Origin: Candidatus Thorarchaeota archaeon
GTDB lineage: Archaea > Asgardarchaeota > Thorarchaeia > Thorarchaeales > Thorarchaeaceae
Reading direction: 5' to 3'
Assembly: GCA_048882385.1 (NCBI GenBank)
Contig: JBHLRQ010000036.1
Location: 1-27,119 of the forward strand
DNA length: 27,119 bases
Under the pieces are notes generated by a model. That model saw nothing but the letters and a program-made list of their open reading frames with translations. It made no database searches and was not told the origin of the DNA. Made by a program: the position numbers and the translations under genes. Shown here one piece after another: positions 1 through 21,036 of the stretch. Every line of letters starts with the position of its first letter. The first letter of the stretch is position 1.

Positions 1-329
1 TTGACTTGTGTATTGCTGATGCTGATACAGTGACCTGGACTGCCATCAAGGTTAATGTCCAGTCCATTAATGATGTATGGAGTTTCAGACGAACCATCAC
101 CAGGCCATCCCTCTAAAGTTGCGGTGGCAGAGAAGTTATCATCTCCATCAATGATAATGGGAGCATGAGGTGTGCCTGCAAGGTAAAGTGGTCTTGATTC
201 TGGTTCTTCGATTGCTTCATTTGTCAAAGGAGTAAGCACATCTAAGTTATGTATTGGCATTATATTTCCAAGTAGTAAGATGATGATCAAACAAACCGTA
301 ATCGAAAAGACACCATTCTTTCCATACAT
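1..329 (-). CDS. Secreted/surface protein of the NosD/right-handed parallel beta-helix type (N-terminal part only, runs off the window)
   Basis: Not in the ORF track; translated by hand from ATG at 329: MYGKNGVFSITVCLIIILLLG...HAPIIIDGDDNF...GWPGDGSSETPYIINGLDI...CISISNT. Signal-peptide-like N-terminus and a GAAGGAG RBS upstream. The HAPI.I.G...GW.GDGS...PYII motif is typical of archaeal beta-helix surface proteins. Confidence 0.75.
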   Translation of the reverse strand, partial: MYGKNGVFSITVCLIIILLLGNIMPIHNLDVLTPLTNEAIEEPESRPLYLAGTPHAPIIIDGDDNFSATATLEGWPGDGSSETPYIINGLDINLDGSPGHCISISNTQV

Positions 330-509
330 GCATTTTTTCTCCTTCACTGCGAAAAAGACGATTGAGGTTTATTTATGCTGGTCTACATGCTTGGAGTCAA
401 TGTTGTGAAGCTACTTCCCATTTCCTTCGCAGAACTTCTCCTACTATTGGTTCGTATGCTTATTAATCAGAGTAGATAGACTAATCTTAGAGAGTTCAAT
501 TCGAGCTGG

Positions 510-554
510 TCAAAGCGAATATCTGTGCCTGTCTAGGAATTCTTGTTTCTTCGC
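510..554 (-). repeat. Copy C of the nrdD 3' end (encodes AKKQEFLDRHRYSL*)
   Basis: 35/45 nt identical to 2888-2932. All 10 mismatches are synonymous third-codon positions. Confidence 0.9.
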
Positions 555-673
555 TGAACACTAGTATATTTGCAATGTCATCAGCTCTAGGTCTGTATAG
601 GGACAGAAAAAACACCCAGAGGAAGGAGGCTTTTTAAGAAAGGTCAGTGACGGTCTAGAACTAACTGAAAGAT

Positions 674-1192
674 GTGGACAGGATGGAGAGAAGAACCAAG
701 ACTGTAGCCTTCCTCATGATTGGTGGGTTTCTATACACATGCTACATAGTTCTCAGTGGATGGATAATGGGGCTGAATCACCTCTATGACCTCTATTCTG
801 GTCAGGTCTGGAGCAGTGGACCAATGATACTAATCTATAGGACTTCAATCTTGCTGCCTATTGTCGATATTGCAGGAGTGCTAGTAATTCTTGGTGCTGT
901 TGTATACTACAGAACATACGAACCAACTAAAGAACAAGTTGTTGTAGTGAGAGGAAAACTAGTCCTGTTAGCGGGCTTCGTTATTGAAACTATCGCCATA
1001 TTGATCCACGCGTTTGGTCTTCTCGTAGCATTCAGTTATCCAGAGGCAGCCTTGCAAACTGTGGACTACATAGCCGCATTGATAATGGGAGATGTAGCTT
1101 CGTTAGGGATTGGTATTTTAGCGTTCGCCACCACTATGGTTGGAATTCTTCTAGGTGGAGTTCACAAAGGGGTGGAGTTCAAAGTGTCGTAA
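674..1192 (+). CDS. Hypothetical integral membrane protein (about 4 TM helices), cassette gene
   Basis: 172-aa ORF with four long hydrophobic segments and a TATA-like TTTTTAAG near 631-638. The start may be ATG 683. Confidence 0.7.
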   Translation: MDRMERRTKTVAFLMIGGFLYTCYIVLSGWIMGLNHLYDLYSGQVWSSGPMILIYRTSILLPIVDIAGVLVILGAVVYYRTYEPTKEQVVVVRGKLVLLAGFVIETIAILIHAFGLLVAFSYPEAALQTVDYIAALIMGDVASLGIGILAFATTMVGILLGGVHKGVEFKVS

Positions 1193-1266
1193 CTATGATC
1201 AAAAAGATTGCATTTCATGAGAGTTCAACAAGCACGGTCACAACTCTAGATAATTTTGAGTAGAAT

Positions 1267-1338
1267 CTATAGAGCATATCGATGCCGGTCTAGGAACTCC
1301 TCCTTCTTGGCAGGATTGAATGACGAAAGTGACTGGAG
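1267..1338 (-). repeat. Copy B of the nrdD 3' end (encodes LQSLSSFNPAKKEEFLDRHRYAL*)
   Basis: 20/23 aa identical to the NrdD C-terminus LQALSSFNPAKKQEFLDRHRYSL*. 1292-1320 matches 2913-2941 at 27/29 nt. Confidence 0.92.
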
Positions 1339-1423
1339 GAATTCATGCAAATAGACTGTCGAGATCAGCCTGAATTCTGTTGGTAGACTTGTTCATGCCT
1401 ATAAAAATCGGTAGTTGCAGGTA

Positions 1424-2206
1424 TTATCGATTATGCACGAGAGCAATGTCCTTAGTCTTGTACACATAGACCTCTCTTCTACTCTTGGTTCTCATAATAG
1501 TTGCAGCTCCATTTTGCCATTTCTTCATTGCTTTCAGTGTGGGCTTGCCTTCGTCACTGTTCAGCCAGTCTGTGATCTCATGCACATCAGGATCATCGAT
1601 GGCTGCTATTGCCTTGGTCACCTTCACTCCTCTTCCGATAGTTTCAAAGAGGCTCTCCTGTAACCAGCGTTTGCGTTCACTGCCATCTTCCTCAACTGGG
1701 ACGAGCCAACAACCAAAGCCATAGGACGTTCCAAACACGTACTTTTGATAGAACCTCTCGAGCTCTTGTTGATAGTGAACGACCATTTGATCGGGTTCTC
1801 TGCCTTCTATCTCGATGCTTACTTCATGGGTCTGCTTTACCTCGTCCAATACTATTGTGATGATGGGAGCTACTGATCTACACTTCTCTTTATACTCGTC
1901 ACTGGAGGGATCACACTCATCATCACAGAAAAAACAGCGAACGATCTCATTCTCTATCGCCACCATATAGTCAGCGTCTATGTTATAGGGATACCATTTC
2001 TTATATTCGAGCTCTTTCCGACCACTCCGTGCTTTGTGAATCTGTTTCTCAATAGAGCGTACTGTGTCATGTATCATCTCCTCTACGACAGTAACTGTAT
2101 CATCTAAGGAAACTCCTCTCTCTTGGATGTACTTTAAAGCAGCACGCTGATGCTCCTTTCGCATAGTCATGATTGAACCGGATAGTGCTATTATTGTTTC
2201 GTACAT
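1424..2206 (-). CDS. Hypothetical soluble protein, cassette gene
   Basis: 260-aa charged ORF containing CFFCDDEC. No family recognised. The start may be ATG 2170. Confidence 0.7.
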   Translation of the reverse strand: MYETIIALSGSIMTMRKEHQRAALKYIQERGVSLDDTVTVVEEMIHDTVRSIEKQIHKARSGRKELEYKKWYPYNIDADYMVAIENEIVRCFFCDDECDPSSDEYKEKCRSVAPIITIVLDEVKQTHEVSIEIEGREPDQMVVHYQQELERFYQKYVFGTSYGFGCWLVPVEEDGSERKRWLQESLFETIGRGVKVTKAIAAIDDPDVHEITDWLNSDEGKPTLKAMKKWQNGAATIMRTKSRREVYVYKTKDIALVHNR

Positions 2207-2227
2207 TTTCTTTTGAGTGAGAAGGAG

Positions 2228-2279
2228 TTACAGGAGTATCGATGCCGATCTAGAAATTCCTGCTTCTTTGCAGGATTGA
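2228..2279 (-). repeat. Copy A of the nrdD 3' end (NPAKKQEFLDRHRYS, then a 1-nt deletion before TAA)
   Basis: 2258-2279 is identical over 22 nt to 2919-2940; the rest differs synonymously. It abuts the stop codon of ORF 2280-2819. Confidence 0.92.
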
Positions 2280-2819
2280 CTACACTTGAAATTTGATCTC
2301 TATTATGCCACTTGCCCCACAATACTGACAAGTATAGACCATGTCTTTATGAACTGCATCCAAGTCAATATTACCATCACAGTTCGGACATTCCATCGGG
2401 GTGGAGATTCTTTTAAGTAGTGAGAATTGTGATACTCCAATGTGGCGTCGTGATCCTTTTGGAATCTTCAGTGCTATTTTGTGATTTTCAAACTCAACAA
2501 TTGTCTTTGCAAAAAGAGGGACAAGAAAGAATATTGTGACTCCCACAGAAATGACTATGAAGTCCGCTGGGACCCAAGGACGCTCTATTAAAAACCAAAC
2601 CCACGCCCAGAAGAAAAACATTGAAGTGAAACCAGTAATCAATACGGTCACGCAGCGGTTTTCTGAACTAGCAGCCTTGATACAGCTGTTCGAACAAAAA
2701 GTTCCCTCTCTGTGAGTAAGCCATCTATCACTTTGAGGTGAACCACACCAGTCACAACGTTTTGTCTTGGACGCGTCTAGAATTATGTGTATACGTGGCA
2801 GGTCTTTCTCTTTAGCCAA
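2280..2819 (-). CDS. Membrane protein with two TM helices flanked by two putative Zn-binding domains, cassette gene
   Basis: CDWC...FCSNSC at the N-terminus, two hydrophobic helices, CPNC...CQYC at the C-terminus. TTG start with RBS-like GAGGT and TATA-like TTTTTAAC upstream. Confidence 0.78.
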   Translation of the reverse strand: MAKEKDLPRIHIILDASKTKRCDWCGSPQSDRWLTHREGTFCSNSCIKAASSENRCVTVLITGFTSMFFFWAWVWFLIERPWVPADFIVISVGVTIFFLVPLFAKTIVEFENHKIALKIPKGSRRHIGVSQFSLLKRISTPMECPNCDGNIDLDAVHKDMVYTCQYCGASGIIEIKFQV

Positions 2820-2887
2820 CCCCTAACCTCATGCCCATTTCTTCATGAGGCGTTAAAAAGTTTCAAGTCCTTGGTAGAACTGCAATG

Positions 2888-5029
2888 TCAGAGTGAATAC
2901 CTGTGTCTATCAAGGAACTCCTGCTTCTTTGCAGGATTGAAGCTCGACAAAGCCTGTAGGTACCCTGTAATCCTGCTGAATACTTCCATACCAACAACTC
3001 CACACTTTGGACATGCAATTCTTGAGAGCTCTTCTATCGAGGTGAAACTAGTAGTTCTCCAATCAATACCTGTTTGGTAGTTACAGTTTCCACAAACACA
3101 CACATCTTTGGTGAAGCTCCAGTAAGAATTCAAGGTGTCAGTTGCAATCTTCTTTGTCAGTTCCCACAGAGCAATAGGATCTGGGTTCGCCTCACCTAGA
3201 TAGATGTGTGTAAGAGCTCCACCATCCATGAATGGGTGGAACATTCCTTCTTTCCTGATTCGTTGTGAAAGTGGCAGATTGGCATTGACATCTAGTGTTG
3301 TGCTGTTAGTATAATAGACATTAGGTGCATTTCCCTTGAGATACCTACGCATGCCAGGGTAGGCTTTGTAATCCTTGGCTGCAAGACGACCAGCCGCACT
3401 CTCAGCGGGTGTTCTAGTCACGCCAAAATGAAGACCTGTTTCTTCTTGAAACTCTGCAGCTCTCTGTTTCAAATGTTTGAGTACTTTGATTCCAAAACGC
3501 GTACCTTCAGCTTCGTGAAGATGGTGGTCTGTCATCACCATTGCCATCTCATCAAAACCTACAGTCCCAAGCAAGAACTCACGTTTGTTCATGTCGATCA
3601 GGGGATCACCGTTTGGTTTTGGCTGAGTATAGAATGGGACACTTCCACTGCCAATCAGTTTGTCCATGAGTCGTTTCTTCTCAAGAATGACCTCCTTAGA
3701 CAGCTCTACAAAACTATCAACCCTCTCAAAGAACCTGTCCTCATCAGTCCTGCCTAGCCAAGCAGCACGTCCAAAGTTGGGAGTGACCATCTGAGAAGCT
3801 CCAAACACCATGTTTCCGCTCAAAAACTCCTCCAGTTCCTCGTCACTACTTGCAGTCCAGAGATGTGAACAGCAACTGCTACATCCTGCCTCGATTTTTG
3901 ATCGCCAGTTGAGATAGTTCTCAAAATAGGGAGAACCATGCTTTGCTGTAAGCTCTGCTACAAGTTCCCATGAGGGCTCATATTCAGAACCCATGAACTC
4001 TTTTCTCAGTACAATGTTGGGTTTTGGAAAACCAAAGCCCTTGCCCTTCACATCACCTTTCAACATGACATCCATAAAGGCGTTGAAGAAGAGTCTCGCT
4101 TCTTCTTCATAGTCCCCATATGTAATCTCTGTTTCTTTACCTCCGGGCAGGACTGCAGGAACATCACGCATAATCTTTGGAATGCCTGGCGTGAGGTCAA
4201 CACTTGAAAAGATGACTTGCCCTCCACGAGCAACATACTGTTGAGTGAGTGTGAATACGAGTTGCTGTGCGGCTTGCTTGATCTTCTTATACGGTTGACC
4301 TTTCATGAATGGAGCAAGAAAGGTGTTGAAATAGAAGTACCCTTGACCACCAGCAAAGGAGCTCTGGGCAGCAGCTAGCCAGATTGCTGAGTGATTGACA
4401 GCCACAGAGAGATGTTGAGCAGGACCTGCAGCACTTGAGTGCATTCCGCCTAATCCATCCGGAGCGATACCCAGTTTTAGAACCTGGCGAAGATCCCACG
4501 TAGCACAGTAATCTCGTGTGCTGAAATATTCCCTGTCTTTGATGTAGATATCTCCCCTGAGGTGAGCATCTGCAAGATGAGGGGGTATCGAGAGGTAGGT
4601 ATGTTGTTCCATCACTTGATCATGGACCAGCTTCGCAATGGTTTCAGGATTACGCATTAGGTTTGCATTGTATGTATGGTCACCGGGATTATTGATGAGC
4701 ATAGTAAGATCATGCATCGGAATTCCAACACGAGTGTATAGGATACGTTCCTTTTCGAAGCCCATTTCTGCTAAGATACTGTTACACATCTCACGGATGA
4801 GCGGTCCAGACAAGAACTTGATACCAGAAGCAACAATTCGGTCCATTACCTTGACTGCAATCAAATGAGCATCTGCATGAAGAAGACCTGCTTCAAGAAT
4901 GAGGCTATCAATTATCTTGCTCGCATCGAAAGTTTCCATAGTACTACTGGTTGTACGAACCTTCGGCATCTTCTTCTCTCTGGCTTTGAGATCCTCTGCA
5001 GATGTGATTGTACTTCCTATGTCAGTCAT
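2888..5029 (-). CDS. nrdD: Anaerobic (class III) ribonucleoside-triphosphate reductase with N-terminal ATP cone
   Basis: ATP cone (VRTTSSTMETFDASKI), AHLRGDIYIKD, DYC, GGQ, SCC, TPAES, YYTNS, a CxxC...CxxC metal site and the glycyl-radical motif RITGY. Confidence 0.96.
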   Translation of the reverse strand: MTDIGSTITSAEDLKAREKKMPKVRTTSSTMETFDASKIIDSLILEAGLLHADAHLIAVKVMDRIVASGIKFLSGPLIREMCNSILAEMGFEKERILYTRVGIPMHDLTMLINNPGDHTYNANLMRNPETIAKLVHDQVMEQHTYLSIPPHLADAHLRGDIYIKDREYFSTRDYCATWDLRQVLKLGIAPDGLGGMHSSAAGPAQHLSVAVNHSAIWLAAAQSSFAGGQGYFYFNTFLAPFMKGQPYKKIKQAAQQLVFTLTQQYVARGGQVIFSSVDLTPGIPKIMRDVPAVLPGGKETEITYGDYEEEARLFFNAFMDVMLKGDVKGKGFGFPKPNIVLRKEFMGSEYEPSWELVAELTAKHGSPYFENYLNWRSKIEAGCSSCCSHLWTASSDEELEEFLSGNMVFGASQMVTPNFGRAAWLGRTDEDRFFERVDSFVELSKEVILEKKRLMDKLIGSGSVPFYTQPKPNGDPLIDMNKREFLLGTVGFDEMAMVMTDHHLHEAEGTRFGIKVLKHLKQRAAEFQEETGLHFGVTRTPAESAAGRLAAKDYKAYPGMRRYLKGNAPNVYYTNSTTLDVNANLPLSQRIRKEGMFHPFMDGGALTHIYLGEANPDPIALWELTKKIATDTLNSYWSFTKDVCVCGNCNYQTGIDWRTTSFTSIEELSRIACPKCGVVGMEVFSRITGYLQALSSFNPAKKQEFLDRHRYSL

Positions 5030-12149: not shown

Positions 12150-12860
12150 CTATCGGTCAATAACAAAGTCATGCCATTCTCTAGAGGTGTCTGTACCCCT
12201 CATTCTCTCCATTCTTAGCTGATGGACCGGTATGGAGCCTCTATCATCTATTCTAAAACGGAGGACTGCATCTGCTAGGTATGAGAAGGTTGCGTATGTC
12301 TTCTCATCATGTACTCCCTCTTCAAGTACATACATGATACTATGAGAACTCTGCGTGACTCTTCCACTCAAACGCTGGACAGCTCGAGGCATTGTTAGGG
12401 GATTAGAGTGAAGAATAAGAGTAGAGAGACTGTCAATTACAACTCGTGCAACCACCAAATCCTGCAATACTTCAGATAGGACAATTCCAAGCTCGCTAAT
12501 ATCATCAACCTTTGCTAGTGATCTTGCACTACCAGCTTTTGGTGCACCCATCCTTTCGGAATATCCATCAATGAATACAAACTTTCCTGAAGCTTCTTGT
12601 TCTTCAATTGACCAACCATGCCGACTCATATCGTTTCTGACAACTCTGGGTGAAACATCTGTAGTGACGAATACTGCTGGAAAACCCAGCTCAATTCCTT
12701 CAGCAAGAAAAGCTTCAGCGTATGTAGTCTTTCCTGACCCAAGTGGTCCAACTAACATATAGGAAACCTGTGTAAGCTGACCAAACTTAACAAGTTCACT
12801 AATCATAGGACTAGCTTTGGCTGGTTCAAGAGTTCCTGCTGAGTCCTGTTTCTCAACCAC
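12150..12860 (-). CDS. KaiC/RAD55-like RecA-superfamily ATPase, single domain
   Basis: Walker A GPLGSGKT, Walker B VVIDSLS and ERMRG. The catalytic EE position reads TD/DV. Confidence 0.85.
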   Translation of the reverse strand: MVEKQDSAGTLEPAKASPMISELVKFGQLTQVSYMLVGPLGSGKTTYAEAFLAEGIELGFPAVFVTTDVSPRVVRNDMSRHGWSIEEQEASGKFVFIDGYSERMGAPKAGSARSLAKVDDISELGIVLSEVLQDLVVARVVIDSLSTLILHSNPLTMPRAVQRLSGRVTQSSHSIMYVLEEGVHDEKTYATFSYLADAVLRFRIDDRGSIPVHQLRMERMRGTDTSREWHDFVIDR

Positions 12861-12884
12861 TTTGAGTACCCCACATGTTTCACA

Positions 12885-13631
12885 CTAATGTCCGGGACTA
12901 ATTTCACCAGGCCATACACGGATACCTTCATCTGTGATTCTCATTGAATGAATCCTTGAGCTGTGTTTTGAACCTCTCAATTTGAGAACCTCAATCGACC
13001 GAGAACGTGATGTGTCTGAAATTTTCTCGTTGTACAGTACAATGACACCTGATGCTAAGAACGCTTCGATATCAAAGACACCCAGTCCATGATCCTGGGC
13101 TGGAATCTCACTTGTTAGGAGAAGGGTGCAACCTGTTCGTGTGAGATTTGCAGTTAGTTTGAAGAACTCTTCGCGGAGAATGTCACGGCTCTTAAACTTG
13201 TAAGCCATAATCGAAAGCGTATCAAGAACAATCCGTTTTGCCTTGATCTTATTGACGTGATTCATGATGATTGCCTCTAATCCTGAGAGGTCGAAACTCG
13301 GATACTCGCCAATGGTCACAGGTGTGATCTCTTTTGATGGAGAGAGATCTACAATGGAGATCTTCTTTTCCTTCACAAGTTTATCAAGATCCATTCCAAA
13401 TTGAAGCATGTTCCTCTTGATGAGATGAGGAGGTTCCTCCAGGGTGACAAACACTCCTGGTTCATCATAATCGACAGCTCCTCTATAGATGAATTGAGTG
13501 GCAAGTATACTCTTTCCAGTACCAGCCTTACCTGCAATGAGGATAGTATCACCTCTTGGGAAGCCACCCTCAGTCAGTTCATCCAACCCGGGGATACCTG
13601 TCTTTACTCGTTCTATTTCGTGGTCGCTCAT
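12885..13631 (-). CDS. KaiC-like RecA-superfamily ATPase, single domain
   Basis: RVKTGIPGLD..GGFP, GKAGTGKS, TLEE, VLDTLS and VLKLRGS motifs. Confidence 0.92.
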   Translation of the reverse strand: MSDHEIERVKTGIPGLDELTEGGFPRGDTILIAGKAGTGKSILATQFIYRGAVDYDEPGVFVTLEEPPHLIKRNMLQFGMDLDKLVKEKKISIVDLSPSKEITPVTIGEYPSFDLSGLEAIIMNHVNKIKAKRIVLDTLSIMAYKFKSRDILREEFFKLTANLTRTGCTLLLTSEIPAQDHGLGVFDIEAFLASGVIVLYNEKISDTSRSRSIEVLKLRGSKHSSRIHSMRITDEGIRVWPGEISPGH

Positions 13632-15142: not shown

Positions 15143-16276
15143 TTATTTTGTAGGAGTTCCTTTGAGAAGACCAAGTTCTCTTTTAGATTGCCACACAACA
15201 TAGAATATCTTCTTTGTCGCGAGTGTTTCTTCATCGTGTTGTGCACATAAAGTTTCAAACTTCTGAACATATTCCTCTCTGTTTTCTGGCGTCAGATTCG
15301 CTTTGATTTCATCTAGAAGGTCTTCAAACGGCTTTAGAGTGCCTGCCAAATCCCTCACATCCCAACGAATAATGGCACCAGTCCCATCAGAAGTGATGAA
15401 TGTTGATGCCTTTGGATACCATTCAATTCCATCGATTTCGCCAATGGTTGACGCCTCACCTTGGATGGTAAAGGTATCAGTTTCCCAAAGATACAGCACC
15501 TTATCACTAGATCCTGAAGCGAGGTACTTGCCATCTTCACTGAAGGTCAATGCACGAACCTCAGTTGAATGACCCTGGAGAACTTGTTCCATCTTCATCG
15601 GAGATTCAGTCGCGTTCCATATAATCATGTAATTGTCAGATGCACCTGATGCAAGTCGACTTCCATCATTGGTAAATCGCACTTGATGAACTGCAGCTCT
15701 GTGTTCTTTATGTCGTTCAATCATCTTTCCAGTGTTTGAATCCCATTCACAGATATTTGCGTCAACAGAACCTGAAACTATTCTGTTGTCATTAGGATCC
15801 CAATCGCATGTAACTACGTAAAAGCCATGCCCCTTTAATTGGTGTAACTTTGAACGGTTCTCAATGTCCCAGATTATCAGAGAAGTATCACCACTTCCGG
15901 ATACCAGTTTGTTTCCATCAGGAGAGAATGATAAGGATAGGACTGGATATGTGTGTCCCTCCAAGGTTCCAAGGCAATCACCAGTTCGGATGTCCCAGAG
16001 TTTCACAACTCTTTCAACGCTTCCGGAAGCGAGAAGGTCACCATTTGGACTAAATGCAATTGAGGTGCACAGAAACTCATCCTGCATTCGCTGCATCTCT
16101 TCACCATTATCAGCCATGTATAGGCGGATACTCCTATCTTGCATCGCTGCAGCATACATCCGACCGATTTTATTCATAGCAAAACGTCGAGTGATATCAG
16201 AACCATGCGCCGCCTGCGGTTTCAGGATTGTTGGTTTCAAGAAAATTTCGAAATCTTGACTCTCCATGGATGTCAC
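15143..16276 (-). CDS. WD40-repeat beta-propeller protein with short helical C-terminal extension
   Basis: Repeated GH...LASGS.D..I.WD units (about 7 blades) followed by a roughly 65-aa helical tail. Confidence 0.93.
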   Translation of the reverse strand: MTSMESQDFEIFLKPTILKPQAAHGSDITRRFAMNKIGRMYAAAMQDRSIRLYMADNGEEMQRMQDEFLCTSIAFSPNGDLLASGSVERVVKLWDIRTGDCLGTLEGHTYPVLSLSFSPDGNKLVSGSGDTSLIIWDIENRSKLHQLKGHGFYVVTCDWDPNDNRIVSGSVDANICEWDSNTGKMIERHKEHRAAVHQVRFTNDGSRLASGASDNYMIIWNATESPMKMEQVLQGHSTEVRALTFSEDGKYLASGSSDKVLYLWETDTFTIQGEASTIGEIDGIEWYPKASTFITSDGTGAIIRWDVRDLAGTLKPFEDLLDEIKANLTPENREEYVQKFETLCAQHDEETLATKKIFYVVWQSKRELGLLKGTPTK

Positions 16277-18485: not shown

Positions 18486-18791
18486 GTGGGACGAACAGTC
18501 CGCACTTATAGAGATGCAATTAGGATTGAAGAAACTCGGTGGAAAGAATTCAGGCGCACTCTCAGACCGACTCAGAGAGACCAGTTCGACCGCATATTTG
18601 ACTATGCAAGAGGCTTTGCAGACGCAGGTACTATGATGGTGACACCTCGTGTCATAGAGGTGGTTCTGCTATCCGCAATCCTTGAGATGCTTGGTGAGAT
18701 TGACAAAATCAAAGCGAGGGTTCAGGTCTTAGAAGAGAAGATTGAGGAGAAAGCCCCTGATGAAGAAGACTGGATGGCTCCTGGACTGTAG
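18486..18791 (+). CDS. Small helical PolB2-associated protein (arCOG07300-like)
   Basis: GRTV.TYR...E..RWKEFRRTLR...FDRIFDYA pattern, overlapping the polB2 start. Start is GTG at 18486 or 18477. Confidence 0.75.
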   Translation: MGRTVRTYRDAIRIEETRWKEFRRTLRPTQRDQFDRIFDYARGFADAGTMMVTPRVIEVVLLSAILEMLGEIDKIKARVQVLEEKIEEKAPDEEDWMAPGL

Positions 18792-21036
18792 TGTGGACCA
18801 GGAGAAACAAGCACTGACTCTCTGGATAAAGAGTGATGGGAGGACGAGAGGTTACACCTATCGTGGGTTCAATCCCTCTGTGTTTGTCAGCACAGATTTG
18901 ATCAAGAGCAGGGACTGGAGCGAAACGGACATCCTACGTGCAGTCAGTGAACATCCAAAGGTAGTGGACACTGAGATTGTGTCCAAGTATGCCAGTGTCT
19001 ATGATGACGAGATGACACCAGTCCTTCAGGTATCCACCACACCAGATGCGCTACGAGAAGTAGCAGAAGACCTAGAGAAACTACCTGGAGCCACTGTGTT
19101 TCATGCAGACATTGATCCAGTTCAGCAGTTCTTCATAGACAGGACCATGTTTGCCTTTGGACGTATCGAAATCGATCTAGGAAAAGAAGATGAGATTGTT
19201 AAGATCACCTTTCTTGATGATCGTGAGAATCCCGAGTACGACATTCCCGAACTTGAAGAAATAGGCTTCGAGGTGTTTGTTGATACAGACCAGATATTTC
19301 CCAAGATGGAAGACCGGATACACCACATCGAGATCTACTATAGGGGGAGGACAATTCACATTGAAGATCAGAGTGAGAGAATAATCCTCCAACGTTTTCA
19401 GAGTGCGATAGACAGGATAGACCCTGATGTAATCAATACTGCAAGGGGAGATGAGAGTCTCTTCAGGTATCTCAGTCTACGTGCAAGGGTCAATGCGATG
19501 GACCTGATACTCTCTAGGGACGGGTCACCGTTGAAAGTTGTTCACAGAGAAGCGCAGTCATTCTGGCAGTACAATCGTATTGTGTTCAGGTCCGGAACGC
19601 AGGTCACACTGAATGGAAGAGTTCACATAGACCGAGGAAAGACGGGTATGCATTTCTTCTCTCCGACAGGACTGGAAGGAGTTGTGGAGAGCTGCCGACT
19701 CGCCCTAGGTCGTCCACAGAGGGTCTCACGAATGACAATCGGAGGTGTGAATGCAGCTGTTCAGTTCTACAAAGCATACAAAATGGACATCCTGATACCT
19801 CCAGTGAAACGAAATCCTGAGTTTCTCAAGTCTATTAATGAACTGACAGCCATTGACAGAGGAGGTCTAATTCTTCAGCCAAGACCTGACATCTACGAGA
19901 ACGTGGCAGAATGCGATTTCTCGTCCATGTATCCAACATTGATGGTCAAGCAGAACATCAGTCCAGAAACAATCTGTACCCTGACAAGCTGTCCCTATGA
20001 TTACAAGCACTGCATCGAGATTCCTCAGCAGAGTTTCAGAATCTGCACTCGCAAGAGGGGAATAGTATCAGAGTCACTAGAGTTACTGGTCGAACGCCGT
20101 ACTGCCTTCAAGAAACTGATAGAAGGAGGAAGAGATGCCAAAAAGTATGAGCATATACAGAATACTCTGAAGGGAGTGCTGGTTTCGTGTTTTGGGTATC
20201 TCGGATTCAAGAATGCAAAGTTTGGGAGAGTGGAAGCTCATACTGCTGTCACTGCTCTATCAAGAGAGGTCATGCTCAAGACTCAAGAGATTGCAGAATC
20301 AATGAATCTTGAGATGATACATGGTATTGTAGACTCCGTCTGGCTGAAGGGAGAGATCGATCATGAGAACATTACGGAATTCTGCAGGCAGGTGACTAAA
20401 GAGGCGGACATAAAGATGTCACCCAAAGGAGTCTACAGATGGATGGTCATTCCATCCTCACGACTGCACCCCTCAGTTGCGCCACTGAACAGATATTATG
20501 GAGTCTATAAGAATGGAGGAATAAAGACACGTGGGATTGAAACCAGACGGCGTGATACATGTCTCTATGTAGGTGATTGCCAGAAAGAGATAATCAAGAC
20601 CCTTGCACGAGGCTATGACAAAGCAGGATTTCTTAGACAGATACCTGCGGCAAGAGCTGTTTGTCAGGAGTACATAGGCAGACTTCATGATGATGATGTC
20701 GACCTCAGAGACCTCATTCTCAATTCAACACTCACAAGAGACCCTCATGCATATCGTGCCACATCAAGAGCTGCAGTGGTAGCTCAGCAGCTAGTCAAGG
20801 CCGGGAGAGAACTACACGCGGGACAAAAGGTCCGCTATATCATGACTAGCGCAGACTCAGACAACCCACTGCGGAGAGTGTGTGCACTGGAGCTTTTTGA
20901 TAAATCAACCAGATACGACCCTGATGCATACGCCAAACTCTGTCAACGGGCTTTTGAGAATCTCATACCTGCACAATACCTAGATTCAACAGAGGATTTT
21001 GATTCGGAGCAGACAATTCTTGTTCCGAACTCGTAG
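18760..21036 (+). CDS. polB2: Family B DNA polymerase, PolB2 group
   Basis: Motif A DFSSMYP, motif B LKGVLVSCFGYLG, motif C HGIVDS (instead of YGDTDS), NRYYG and RGIE. Exonuclease motifs are degenerate. Confidence 0.9.
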   Translation: MKKTGWLLDCSVDQEKQALTLWIKSDGRTRGYTYRGFNPSVFVSTDLIKSRDWSETDILRAVSEHPKVVDTEIVSKYASVYDDEMTPVLQVSTTPDALREVAEDLEKLPGATVFHADIDPVQQFFIDRTMFAFGRIEIDLGKEDEIVKITFLDDRENPEYDIPELEEIGFEVFVDTDQIFPKMEDRIHHIEIYYRGRTIHIEDQSERIILQRFQSAIDRIDPDVINTARGDESLFRYLSLRARVNAMDLILSRDGSPLKVVHREAQSFWQYNRIVFRSGTQVTLNGRVHIDRGKTGMHFFSPTGLEGVVESCRLALGRPQRVSRMTIGGVNAAVQFYKAYKMDILIPPVKRNPEFLKSINELTAIDRGGLILQPRPDIYENVAECDFSSMYPTLMVKQNISPETICTLTSCPYDYKHCIEIPQQSFRICTRKRGIVSESLELLVERRTAFKKLIEGGRDAKKYEHIQNTLKGVLVSCFGYLGFKNAKFGRVEAHTAVTALSREVMLKTQEIAESMNLEMIHGIVDSVWLKGEIDHENITEFCRQVTKEADIKMSPKGVYRWMVIPSSRLHPSVAPLNRYYGVYKNGGIKTRGIETRRRDTCLYVGDCQKEIIKTLARGYDKAGFLRQIPAARAVCQEYIGRLHDDDVDLRDLILNSTLTRDPHAYRATSRAAVVAQQLVKAGRELHAGQKVRYIMTSADSDNPLRRVCALELFDKSTRYDPDAYAKLCQRAFENLIPAQYLDSTEDFDSEQTILVPNS

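Follow-up and report, generated by a model that had tools for sequence, protein, structure and literature searches.

The 3′ end of nrdD, the gene for the anaerobic ribonucleotide reductase, is very probably (probability about 0.85) the entry point of a true exchangeable gene-cassette system in a Candidatus Thorarchaeota archaeon. It has the appearance of a gene-capture site because copies of the nrdD tail are joined, in related species, to different genes that were recently exchanged. The window, i.e. the whole 27,119-nt stretch of DNA that was analysed, is contig C36 end to end. The anchor gene of the array, called as an ORF, encodes 713 amino acids; full-length matches that are 79–91% identical were found in genomes of the genus and family, and the translation shows a glycyl-radical-type C-terminus. 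The features of the locus are as follows.

2888..5029, minus strand: nrdD (ORF)
2888..2962, minus strand: functional tail c0, the last 24 codons plus stop and the active insertion site, the right part of which moves with the first cassette in relatives
2906..2936, minus strand: conserved core of about 30 nt (pattern match at 2910-2935; peaks of conservation and linkage)
2919-2936, minus strand: 6+6+6 dyad in the core, TCCTGC-AAAGAA-GCAGGA
2280..2887, minus strand: cassette A (ORF 2819..2280), a 179-aa membrane protein with a C-terminal zinc ribbon (weak Zn-ribbon Pfam matches)
2225..2279, minus strand: displaced copy c1, 17 codons with one base missing near the end (repeat detection and tblastn)
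1342..2224, minus strand: cassette B (ORF 2206..1424), a 260-aa protein of unknown function (ORF)
1267..1341, minus strand: displaced copy c2, 24 codons plus stop, frame intact (repeat detection and tblastn)
581..1266, plus strand: cassette C (ORF 674..1192), a 172-aa membrane protein antisense to nrdD (ORF)
564..580, minus strand: 17-nt scar resembling the nrdD stop codon and the first bases of cassette A (repeat family)
510..554, minus strand: displaced copy c3, 14 codons plus stop, beginning at the left edge of the core (repeat detection and tblastn)
1..509, minus strand: start of cassette D (ORF 347..3), a beta-helix (NosD-like) surface protein (Pfam Beta_helix/NosD)

The first-pass annotation of the window had described three direct copies of the nrdD tail downstream of the gene, with one gene per unit in units of about 0.66, 0.96 and 0.76 kb. 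Repeat detection gives copies at 2231-2299, 1271-1339 and 514-554, with start-to-start spacings of 661, 960 and 757 nt. Each unit contains one ORF (179 aa, 260 aa and, on the opposite strand, 172 aa), and the fourth gene that had been placed past the last copy does start there. When the last 39 residues of NrdD were searched against the whole 3.7-Mb assembly by tblastn, the copies were recovered at E = 1.5e-9, 5e-6 and 2e-4, with no match at E < 0.1 outside C36 and C148, the contig that continues the array. DNA identity among the tail copies in the window is 61–78%. The description of the copies as recoded agrees with the differences at codon positions 1, 2 and 3 (22, 11 and 60 in an alignment of the genome's own copies that covers 121 codons) and with 50 synonymous compared with 19 non-synonymous changed codons, counts for which the copies were aligned via a protein search that is itself biased towards a synonymous pattern.

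Leftwards the array runs on beyond the contig. The minus-strand end of C36 is identical to the start of C148 over 77 exact bases, both lying within a single uninterrupted ORF, and C148 adds four further tail copies (1711-1749, 2650-2727, 3311-3398, which is frameshifted, and 4861-4902). The ORF of cassette D goes on for 549 codons in C148. The two contigs, when joined, hold seven displaced copies and seven cassettes spanning approximately 7.7 kb; cassettes A, B, D and F are in the sense orientation with respect to nrdD and C, E and G are antisense. The 17-nt scar is possibly the remnant of a deleted unit, a chance likeness also being conceivable, and the proposal that the newer cassettes lie nearest nrdD is plausible.

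Extra nrdD tail copies are present in 17 of the 28 genomes of the genus, and arrays were also found in two other genera. The approximately 52 displaced copies in these 17 genomes are all in direct orientation, and no inverted copy was detected at E ≤ 0.5 among the 28. The gaps between copies range from 457 to 4625 nt, and a single ORF (threshold, ≥ 70 aa) is contained in 36 of 44, where one complete ORF takes up most of 0.46–2.2 kb. Cargo is variable between relatives: when 167 ORFs from the arrays, from just beyond the arrays and from beside nrdD in genomes without extra copies were clustered, 79 were singletons. The variable, repeat-bounded cargo that the first-pass annotation predicted is therefore seen from genome to genome, and the order of genes 3′ of nrdD is not fixed. 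The sub-kilobase size proposed for the units holds in the window (661–960 nt) but not throughout, as a unit of 4.6 kb with three large genes is found in one relative. In another, G030, a 16-kb island (type I R-M, nucleases, TBP) separates nrdD from a decayed tail. Contigs from sediment metagenomes carry at least five different sequences after the nrdD stop codon (loose ends at 2886-2898). No copies dispersed away from nrdD were detected by genome-wide tblastn and a pattern scan. The Asgard affiliation of the host is supported by a true actin (PF00022, E = 2.6e-132) and by a cassette whose closest relatives are in Candidatus Thorarchaeota. No description of such an array was found in the literature searched.

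Exchange between species was measured as identity at four-fold sites. For nrdD this identity is 0.32–0.46 (21 pairs) and the gene families flanking the arrays on the far side have medians of 0.33–0.42, whereas the median for a luciferase-like (LLM) monooxygenase cassette is 0.74 (45 pairs) and two further cassettes reach 0.90 and 0.94, which argues for recent exchange of the cassettes. The exceptions are two post-array gene pairs that are also high (0.92 and 0.81). The cassettes have thus moved between species long after the species diverged. Those in the window recur elsewhere: a homologue of cassette A (43% identical) is the first cassette in G001; cassette B, the protein of which has no Pfam match, occupies the first position in G002 and the second in G013 (four-fold-site identity 0.79–0.80); and a homologue of cassette C (82% aa identity; four-fold-site identity 0.87) adjoins an nrdD tail in G008. 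The LLM cassette is widely shared, and its nearest relatives outside the Thorarchaeota are in the Chloroflexota and Actinomycetota. A ParA-like gene is present in one cassette.

Cassettes common to different species show that the mobile unit is circularly permuted, consisting of the right half of a tail up to and including the stop codon, the cargo and the left half of the next tail. In the three different contexts of cassette B, homology begins inside the upstream tail and stops inside the downstream tail. The LLM cassette has the same tail-internal boundaries in 10 contexts, in one of which the upstream tail is a working nrdD end. Linkage across the 84-nt tail follows the same division. Pairs that share the upstream cassette (40) are more alike than background only at positions 1–36 and pairs that share the downstream cassette (44) only at positions 67–84, while positions 37–66 are equally alike in every class, including 1793 unrelated pairs. 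The switch from left to right linkage thus lies between positions 37 and 66, and every join of a left with a right half falls in the core of about 30 nt. Conservation of the core is 0.83–0.89 compared with about 0.6 in its flanks (47 dead or displaced copies); it is also the peak of synonymous-site conservation in 12 functional tails, and the three shortest of the genome's own copies start at its edge. The functional tails of G002 and G003 bear the right-half signature of their first cassette; the last 6–12 codons of the working nrdD belong to the first cassette, whichever that is. As the first cassette supplies the end of nrdD, the gene is kept intact while the older tail shifts downstream.

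The nrdD gene had been proposed as the site of capture, and an array is indeed present there, but the site is not unique. Tail-only duplications also occur 3′ of genes for an EtfA-like protein, AdoHcyase and actin, and a scan of 2582 ORF tails of this genome gave no anchors beyond these four. The duplication at the actin gene extends beyond the stop codon into a terminator-like hairpin.

How the cassettes move can be proposed from this organisation. The intermediate would be a cassette circle with one complete tail, and reciprocal recombination inside the core would both insert and excise it. The reaction might be catalysed by a site-specific recombinase acting in trans, encoded by an unbinned plasmid or virus or belonging to an unrecognised family, analogous to the mobilisation of integrase-less CIMEs or CALIN cassettes. 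The odds on such a step are about even. As had been noted from the sequence, there is no recombinase in the window, none being found in Pfam scans of 14 of its ORFs. A six-frame search of the genome (95% completeness) for PF00589, PF00239 and PF01797 gave no tyrosine recombinase, serine recombinase or Y1 transposase, and controls for the PF00589 search were positive in 14 of 14. Pfam scans of 27 cargo proteins from the arrays gave no recombinase, transposase or integrase-fragment domain, and neither recombinase nor transposase domains were found when the 10 ORFs of the 16-kb G030 island were examined. PF00589 was detected in only 8 of the 28 genus genomes, never on an array contig, and is absent from the array-bearing G001, G002, G013, G014 and G017. 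Six integrase loci of relatives have no adjoining nrdD-type tail, and one degenerate-pattern scan of IMG/VR returned a viral nrdD gene only and no attP. Other features also argue against a site-specific enzyme: it would need several specificities, since tails are duplicated after three unrelated genes; the left arms, of approximately 0 to 30 codons and derived from nrdD alleles, would be unnecessary for it; and the arms of the dyad are just 6 bp and could reflect codons for N-P-A-K-K-Q-E.

A dedicated enzyme would be superfluous if the permuted cassettes were moved by the general RadA pathway with the duplicated tails as portable homology, either by Campbell-type pop-in and pop-out of circles or by unequal exchange or SDSA with incoming arrays of related species. 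Archaeal recombination is able to work on short homology, and only the 3′ tails of very conserved genes would suit such a process, because it needs homology across species and a gene that is kept intact. The negative searches agree with this explanation, as do the duplicated EtfA-like, AdoHcyase and actin tails, all from strongly conserved genes, the copy lengths of 12 to approximately 60 codons, the derivation of the left arms, in recoded form, from foreign nrdD alleles and the reach of the actin duplication past the stop codon. It is nevertheless unlikely on balance, as efficient recombination would have to rely on a very short homology, the core of about 30 nt, in which unrelated copies are only approximately 80% alike. 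Crossovers also seem limited to that core, which is conserved at synonymous sites and in copies that are dead. Furthermore, the left boundaries are not spread but group around residues 16 and 27 of the 39-residue query, and many more conserved genes exist than the four that serve as anchors.

The arrays could also be the scars of kilobase-sized, integrase-bearing plasmids or proviruses that integrated serially at the nrdD 3′ end and were each later trimmed by deletion, in the manner of tycheposon islands. Direct duplication of a 3′ end with a replacement end borne by the element is the hallmark of such integration, and the 4.6-kb unit, the G030 island and the ParA-like gene would fit it. In addition, other mobile elements are reported to attach at nrdD (10.1101/2025.07.27.667033), and growth of islands by this route is outlined in 10.1101/2020.12.28.424599. 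This origin is improbable given that the units are compact, one complete ORF filling most of the 36 single-ORF gaps, and that the scanned cargo holds no integrase fragment. A given single-gene unit turns up, with unchanged boundaries, in more than one species and position at low synonymous divergence, which means that the small unit itself moves. An artefact, whether a collage of strain variants or chance similarity, is suggested by the fragmented metagenome bin, the contigs of which break at 77-nt overlaps (one break is within the array), but is extremely improbable because the copies reach E = 1.5e-9 with nothing elsewhere in the genome, reversed-pattern controls gave 0 matches in 41 genomes, and the same pattern lies inside long contigs (e.g. 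679 kb, 197 kb and 83 kb) from many independent assemblies, which excludes misassembly.

The exchangeable cassette system at nrdD resembles several known ones in part. Like integrons, it has mostly single-gene cassettes arrayed beside a fixed entry point, the cassette is permuted with split recombination sites at its ends, cargo varies among relatives, and arrays last without a neighbouring integrase. The interpretation of the locus as an integron-like capture hotspot is supported to this extent, but it is no integron in the family sense because it has neither IntI nor an attC fold. In place of attI/attC there is the coding 3′ end of a housekeeping gene, and the cargo is of mixed orientation and not co-oriented. 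DNA folds of four tail copies on both strands gave z-scores of −1.75 to +0.52 with no attC-type hairpin, the only pairing being the 6-bp dyad, in c0 and c1 only. Integron arrays, those of archaea and CALINs among them, are described in PMC9668308.

Like integrative elements that stack in tandem at a gene end, the units have direct repeats that copy the target 3′ end, incoming DNA restores the end of the gene, older units are displaced outward, and units without an integrase may be moved in trans. Tandem accretion at gene 3′ ends is known from SCC elements at rlmH, from CIME/ICE accretion and from e14 at icd. Unlike these elements, the nrdD units are 0.46–4.6 kb without mobility genes in the 27 scanned cargo proteins, most genomes of the genus have no integrase match, and the repeats are only 60–80% identical, differing mainly at synonymous sites. 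Tycheposon islands, for their part, are described at tRNA genes (10.1101/2020.12.28.424599).

The orphan modules of tpsA/cdiA/rhs share with the nrdD array a short conserved piece of the main gene before each module, growth by displacement and reshuffling within that piece. In those loci the piece precedes each alternative, toxic C-terminal domain, an immunity gene is present and the protein is altered; at nrdD, by contrast, the repeat coincides with the gene's own terminus, the protein is unchanged and the cargo consists of separate, unrelated genes. An array of orphan C-terminal modules was rejected, as the nrdD copies reach the stop codon and encode the same residues and the cargo ORFs are read in a different frame or from the opposite strand. 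PMC3848433 treats the displaced 3′ cassettes of polymorphic toxin genes.

The same gene end also serves as a safe harbour for Tn7-like elements. Tn7-type elements insert outside the gene, duplicate a short target sequence and bring in tnsABC/tniQ. Here, the nrdD tail is duplicated over 13 to 47 codons, and no tnsA/B/C or tniQ was among the matches of the scanned cargo in a general Pfam scan. The use of nrdD by these elements is reported for archaea and bacteria, with one Promethearchaeota (Asgard) case (10.1101/2025.07.27.667033).

Flexible islands and minimal mobile elements likewise give related strains different whole-gene cassettes at a shared locus, with conserved sequence as the recombination handle and no element-encoded enzyme. 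Both are exchanged via homologous recombination in conserved flanks. Unlike the nrdD array, these loci lie between two different conserved genes and accommodate one cassette at a time; the nrdD handle is duplicated at each insertion and cassettes therefore pile up. Replacement and additive flexible islands are discussed in PMC4033161.

Tentatively, the nrdD, etfA, ahcY and actin tails may be reusable docking sites of a gene-capture system general to Thorarchaeota, perhaps also to other Asgard archaea, and distinct from both integrons and classical integrative elements. Single-gene circles would enter and leave at the core of about 30 nt through an unknown recombinase or the cell's own machinery, and the arrays would shuttle genes between species, among them genes that came from bacteria, e.g. 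the one for the luciferase-like monooxygenase. The genomes of Asgard archaea are large and contain many genes taken up from bacteria, and little is known of how these genes enter. The nrdD locus is a concrete and repeatable route: the end of an essential gene serves as a safe harbour, where small cassettes accumulate and are swapped between species without a recognisable integrase. If the mechanism is new, whether through an unknown recombinase or recombinase-free short-homology capture, it would be an additional class of gene-capture platform beside integrons and a docking site for genetic work in Thorarchaeota and other Asgard organisms. The actin gene, which is 97–99% identical across the genus, bears the same signature, and the process therefore acts at core eukaryote-like genes too.

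The gene for the anaerobic ribonucleotide reductase, nrdD, is followed in this genome by displaced copies of its own 3′ tail, all in direct orientation. The three copies that the first-pass annotation had proposed in the window are real and correctly placed, as established by a repeat search and by tblastn. With the last 39 NrdD residues as query against the 3.7-Mb, 256-contig assembly, copies c1, c2 and c3 gave E-values of 1.5e-9, 5e-6 and 2e-4, and no nrdD-tail match at E < 0.1 was found anywhere in the assembly off contigs C36 (the window) and C148. The window copies are spaced 661, 960 and 757 nt start-to-start and have a DNA identity of 61–78%. The leftward extension of the contig that had been proposed as a check was achieved through the start of C148, which shares 77 exact bases with the minus-strand end of C36, within one continuous beta-helix ORF. 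Four more copies on C148 make the array larger than first noted. The components are as follows.

Window 5029..2888, minus strand: nrdD, 713-aa ORF
Window 2279-2225, minus strand: displaced tail copy c1, read downstream of nrdD; repeat search agrees
Window 1341-1267, minus strand: displaced tail copy c2, read downstream of nrdD; repeat search agrees
Window 554-510, minus strand: displaced tail copy c3, read downstream of nrdD; repeat search agrees
C148 1711-1749, 2650-2727, 3311-3398 (frameshifted) and 4861-4902, same orientation: four further tail copies
Cassette A: zinc-ribbon membrane protein, 179 aa
Cassette B: 260-aa protein of unknown function
Cassette C, antisense to nrdD: membrane protein, 172 aa
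Cassette D: NosD-like beta-helix protein, ~640 aa
Cassette E, antisense, L051:1757-2602: luciferase-like monooxygenase (LLM)
Cassette F: membrane protein, 157 aa
Cassette G, antisense: FIMAH-domain protein

The whole array covers ~7.7 kb, with seven units and seven displaced copies; unit lengths, calculated stop-to-stop from the coordinates, are 661, 960, 757, ~2181, 978, 671 and 1504 nt. Genes for a GNAT acetyltransferase and a clostripain-like peptidase lie past the last tail copy, and on its upstream side nrdD is flanked by housekeeping genes. Just upstream of c3, a 17-nt stretch (window 564-580) matches the stop codon of nrdD together with the first bases of cassette A; it could be what a deleted unit left behind, or a chance match. 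Further upstream of nrdD, at 7-16 kb, are two adjacent KaiC/RadA-like ATPase genes and a family B DNA polymerase (window 12150-13631 and 18742-21036), and window 15143-16276 encodes a WD40 protein with strong eukaryote-type profile matches.

The array is a lineage-wide property. When 61 related genomes were searched with NrdD, 15 members of the genus, our own among them, showed short matches to the tail alone downstream of nrdD; two others came from tblastn of fetched loci, giving 17 of 28, a figure that leaves uncounted the many remaining genomes in which nrdD is at a contig end or unassembled. Approximately 52 displaced copies are present in the genus, all in direct orientation, with no reverse-orientation match at E ≤ 0.5 by tblastn in the fetched loci; one genome (G025) has no extra tail copies within 15 kb. 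Across 41 genomes of the family, a pattern scan (reversed-pattern controls, 0 matches) found multi-copy arrays in two further genera. Genome G065 has nrdD and one copy, and G068 has nrdD and one copy plus a separate three-copy contig. G030 has a single decayed tail copy 16 kb downstream of nrdD. The intervening 16-kb island (L039:2142-18317) encodes a type I restriction-modification system (HsdM/S/R), PD-(D/E)XK and Hjc-like nucleases, a nucleoid-protein-like gene and a TBP paralogue; no integrase was found in it.

The arrangement of one gene per unit, first noted in the window, holds across the genus, with a single ORF in 36 of 44 inter-copy gaps (457–4625 nt; greedy choice of non-overlapping ORFs ≥ 70 aa). 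Gene content after nrdD differs between relatives, as the first-pass annotation had anticipated: 167 ORFs, comprising those in the arrays and just beyond as well as those beside nrdD in genomes without extra copies, fell into 26 clusters and 79 singletons. Pfam names among the cargo include an ABC transporter pair, beta-helix proteins, a ParA-like ATPase, a TPR protein, a Cys/Met PLP enzyme, a hydrolase and zinc ribbons, and many cargo proteins have no Pfam match. Sediment-metagenome contigs from four of 20 runs (X1, X4, X8 and X9) contain at least five different sequences right after the nrdD stop (loose ends 2886-2898). Two small alignment skips, of 122 and 80 nt and each from a single low-depth contig, map to nrdD or to sequence upstream of it; they were set aside.

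The copies had been described as recoded, and the excess of third-position changes bears this out: among 121 aligned codons of our copies there are 22, 11 and 60 differences at codon positions 1, 2 and 3 (50 synonymous and 19 non-synonymous codon changes), and among 976 codons from all genomes 211, 122 and 454, a split somewhat biased in this direction by alignment through protein search. The tail copies thus appear to be recoded beyond plain decay. Some changes speak for descent from other working nrdD alleles; a 47-codon copy in G026, for instance, spells a Leu-Ser-Ser stretch with six-fold codons that are wholly different. Distal copies are damaged: c5 has lost its stop, c6 is frameshifted and several copies in relatives have internal stops. 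A gradient of decay with distance from nrdD is hinted at by our own copies and has no clear sign in the relatives, and none is claimed.

The limits of the mobile unit can be read from cassettes that recur with different neighbours. Cassette B occurs in three genomes, second in our array, first in G002 and second behind another first cassette in G013. Aligned with its flanks, the shared sequence starts within the upstream tail (last ~20 nt, including the stop codon) and stops within the downstream tail (first ~40 nt). The upstream tail in G002 is itself the working nrdD end, so that the last codons of nrdD there belong to the cassette. Similarly, the LLM cassette is preceded in all 10 contexts by a right-half signature ending ...CACTGTAG, which in G003 is the end of the functional nrdD, and is followed every time by a characteristic left half. 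In a linkage profile, 64 tails were sorted by upstream and downstream cassette family and compared along the 84-nt tail against a background of 1793 unrelated pairs. Pairs with a common upstream cassette (n = 40) are above background only at positions 1-36, those with a common downstream cassette (n = 44) only at positions 67-84, and positions 37-66 are equally alike in all pair classes. This profile indicates a unit that runs from a right half through the cargo to a left half, with all half-to-half joins lying in a ~30-nt core, which is too uniform for the crossover point to be resolved to better than ~30 nt.

Conservation of the core is 0.83–0.89 in 47 dead copies versus ~0.6 on each side, and its synonymous positions are conserved in 12 functional nrdD genes. 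It contains the dyad TCCTGC-AAAGAA-GCAGGA, and its left edge is the start of our three shortest copies (c3, c4 and c7). A sliding comparison of nrdD between G014 and G016, for recombination tracts running into the gene, was flat at ~0.83 to the stop and is uninformative because the first cassettes differ.

Cassettes have moved between species recently, as seen from identity at four-fold sites (approximated by codons for A, G, P, T, V, L, R and S that agree in their first two bases). For nrdD this identity is 0.32–0.46 and saturated (21 pairs, seven genomes), and post-array gene families c2–c6 have medians of 0.33–0.42 (3–21 pairs per family). The LLM cassette has a median of 0.74 (range 0.66–0.85, 45 pairs), cassette B 0.79–0.80, cassette C 0.87 and two other cassettes 0.90 and 0.94. 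Contrary to the trend, the post-array pairs G007/G015 and G010/G026 are at 0.92 and 0.81 and one pair of family c4 is at 0.87; such pairs could come from close kin or be cassettes that escaped detection. Despite the small synonymous divergence, cassette genes B and E share just 0.81–0.90 amino-acid identity across genomes, so constraint on the cargo looks weak, which suggests relaxed or diversifying selection. LLM homologues (79% and 68% identity) occur without an nrdD tail in two other Thorarchaeota-titled records, and the next relatives are bacterial (Chloroflexota and Actinomycetota, 37–46% identity); the LLM cassette looks like a captured ordinary gene, ultimately of bacterial origin. One metagenome scan gave a single relative of cassette B (69% aa) with no nrdD tail nearby, maybe a native copy and silent on mechanism.

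A scan of 2582 ORF tails across the whole genome found the same tail-only duplication at three other genes only. Same-strand downstream matches were present for 45 tails, from which 38 explained by full-length paralogues and three low-complexity ends were dropped. The three genes are listed below.

L065 (own C34): EtfA-like gene, 406 aa with ferredoxin domain; three tail copies of 22–49 codons at +1.5, +3.3 and +5.0 kb
L066 (own C100): AdoHcyase; two tail copies of 59 and 15 codons at +4.1 and +5.5 kb
L067:2707-3849 (own C21): actin (PF00022, E = 2.6e-132); one tail copy at ~L067:4970-5026

One to a few genes, including those for hemerythrin-domain and BPL_N-domain proteins, separate the EtfA-like and AdoHcyase copies, and etfA tail copies are present in at least 10 genus genomes. 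The actin duplication comprises the last 18 codons and a terminator-like hairpin, 1.1 kb downstream, and a 312-aa antisense ORF of unknown function is the sole ORF in between; tail-only actin copies are found in seven of 28 genus genomes, including our own. No convincing motif is common to the four anchors; purine-rich AAGAAG strings occur in three, as is usual in Lys/Glu-rich ends.

The tight conserved core with its dyad, the confined crossovers, the clustered left boundaries and the restriction to four anchors favour site-specific recombination, with the enzyme supplied in trans, a reading to which we give a probability of about one half. The absence of an integrase or transposase, first noted for the window, now extends to the whole of our genome (95% complete), in which no tyrosine recombinase, serine recombinase or Y1 transposase was detected (control genomes were positive), and to 27 array cargo proteins scanned with Pfam for recombinases and transposases. 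PF00589 was found in eight of 28 genus genomes and is absent from several with good arrays; the 20 genomes in which it was undetected include one that is 97% complete in 50 contigs. The lineage seems either to lack a XerA-type enzyme or to have one that is not recognisable. Plasmids and viruses are routinely lost from metagenome bins, so absence of the enzyme from bins is weak evidence. General homologous recombination on short homology would agree with the lack of a recombinase, with arms that vary in length and derive from nrdD, and with four unrelated anchors that are all very conserved genes; we consider it less likely than the enzyme in trans. That the units are decayed larger integrase-bearing elements is improbable, being contradicted by compact, reusable single-gene units.

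Two candidate sources of an attachment site were rejected. The sole IMG/VR match to one degenerate pattern scan was a viral nrdD gene of 1553 codons, not an attP, and tblastn of four tails against six integrase loci of relatives gave one match (E = 0.008) within a 346-aa Bro-N-like ORF, judged spurious.

Systems suited to comparison include SCC/rlmH, CIMEs, e14/icd and minimal mobile elements. No description of arrays of this kind was found in the literature searched. A 2025 preprint reports two archaeal Tn7-like elements that use nrdD for attachment, one of them in a Promethearchaeota genome, and its portions covered here contain no tail arrays (10.1101/2025.07.27.667033); the searched parts of a paper on Atabeyarchaeia mobile elements likewise contain no such feature. 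Archaeal integrons, according to the relevant section of PMC9668308, require IntI and attC. No attC-like fold was found in the nrdD tails, and the array is therefore no integron in the family sense. The nearest concept is the tycheposon model, in which islands grow beside tRNA genes (10.1101/2020.12.28.424599). The integron-like capture hotspot of the first-pass annotation stands as a description of behaviour, since the array works like an integron or accretion island, but not as a class assignment, as the array fails the defining tests of both.

A separate observation concerns nrdD itself. In four genomes (G028:C20, G029:C63, G048:C1 and G057:C105) the NrdD match is split in two inside a single open frame of 1216–1247 aa. 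The split suggests an insertion of intein-like kind, placed near residue 226 in G028 and G029 and at other positions in G048 and G057.
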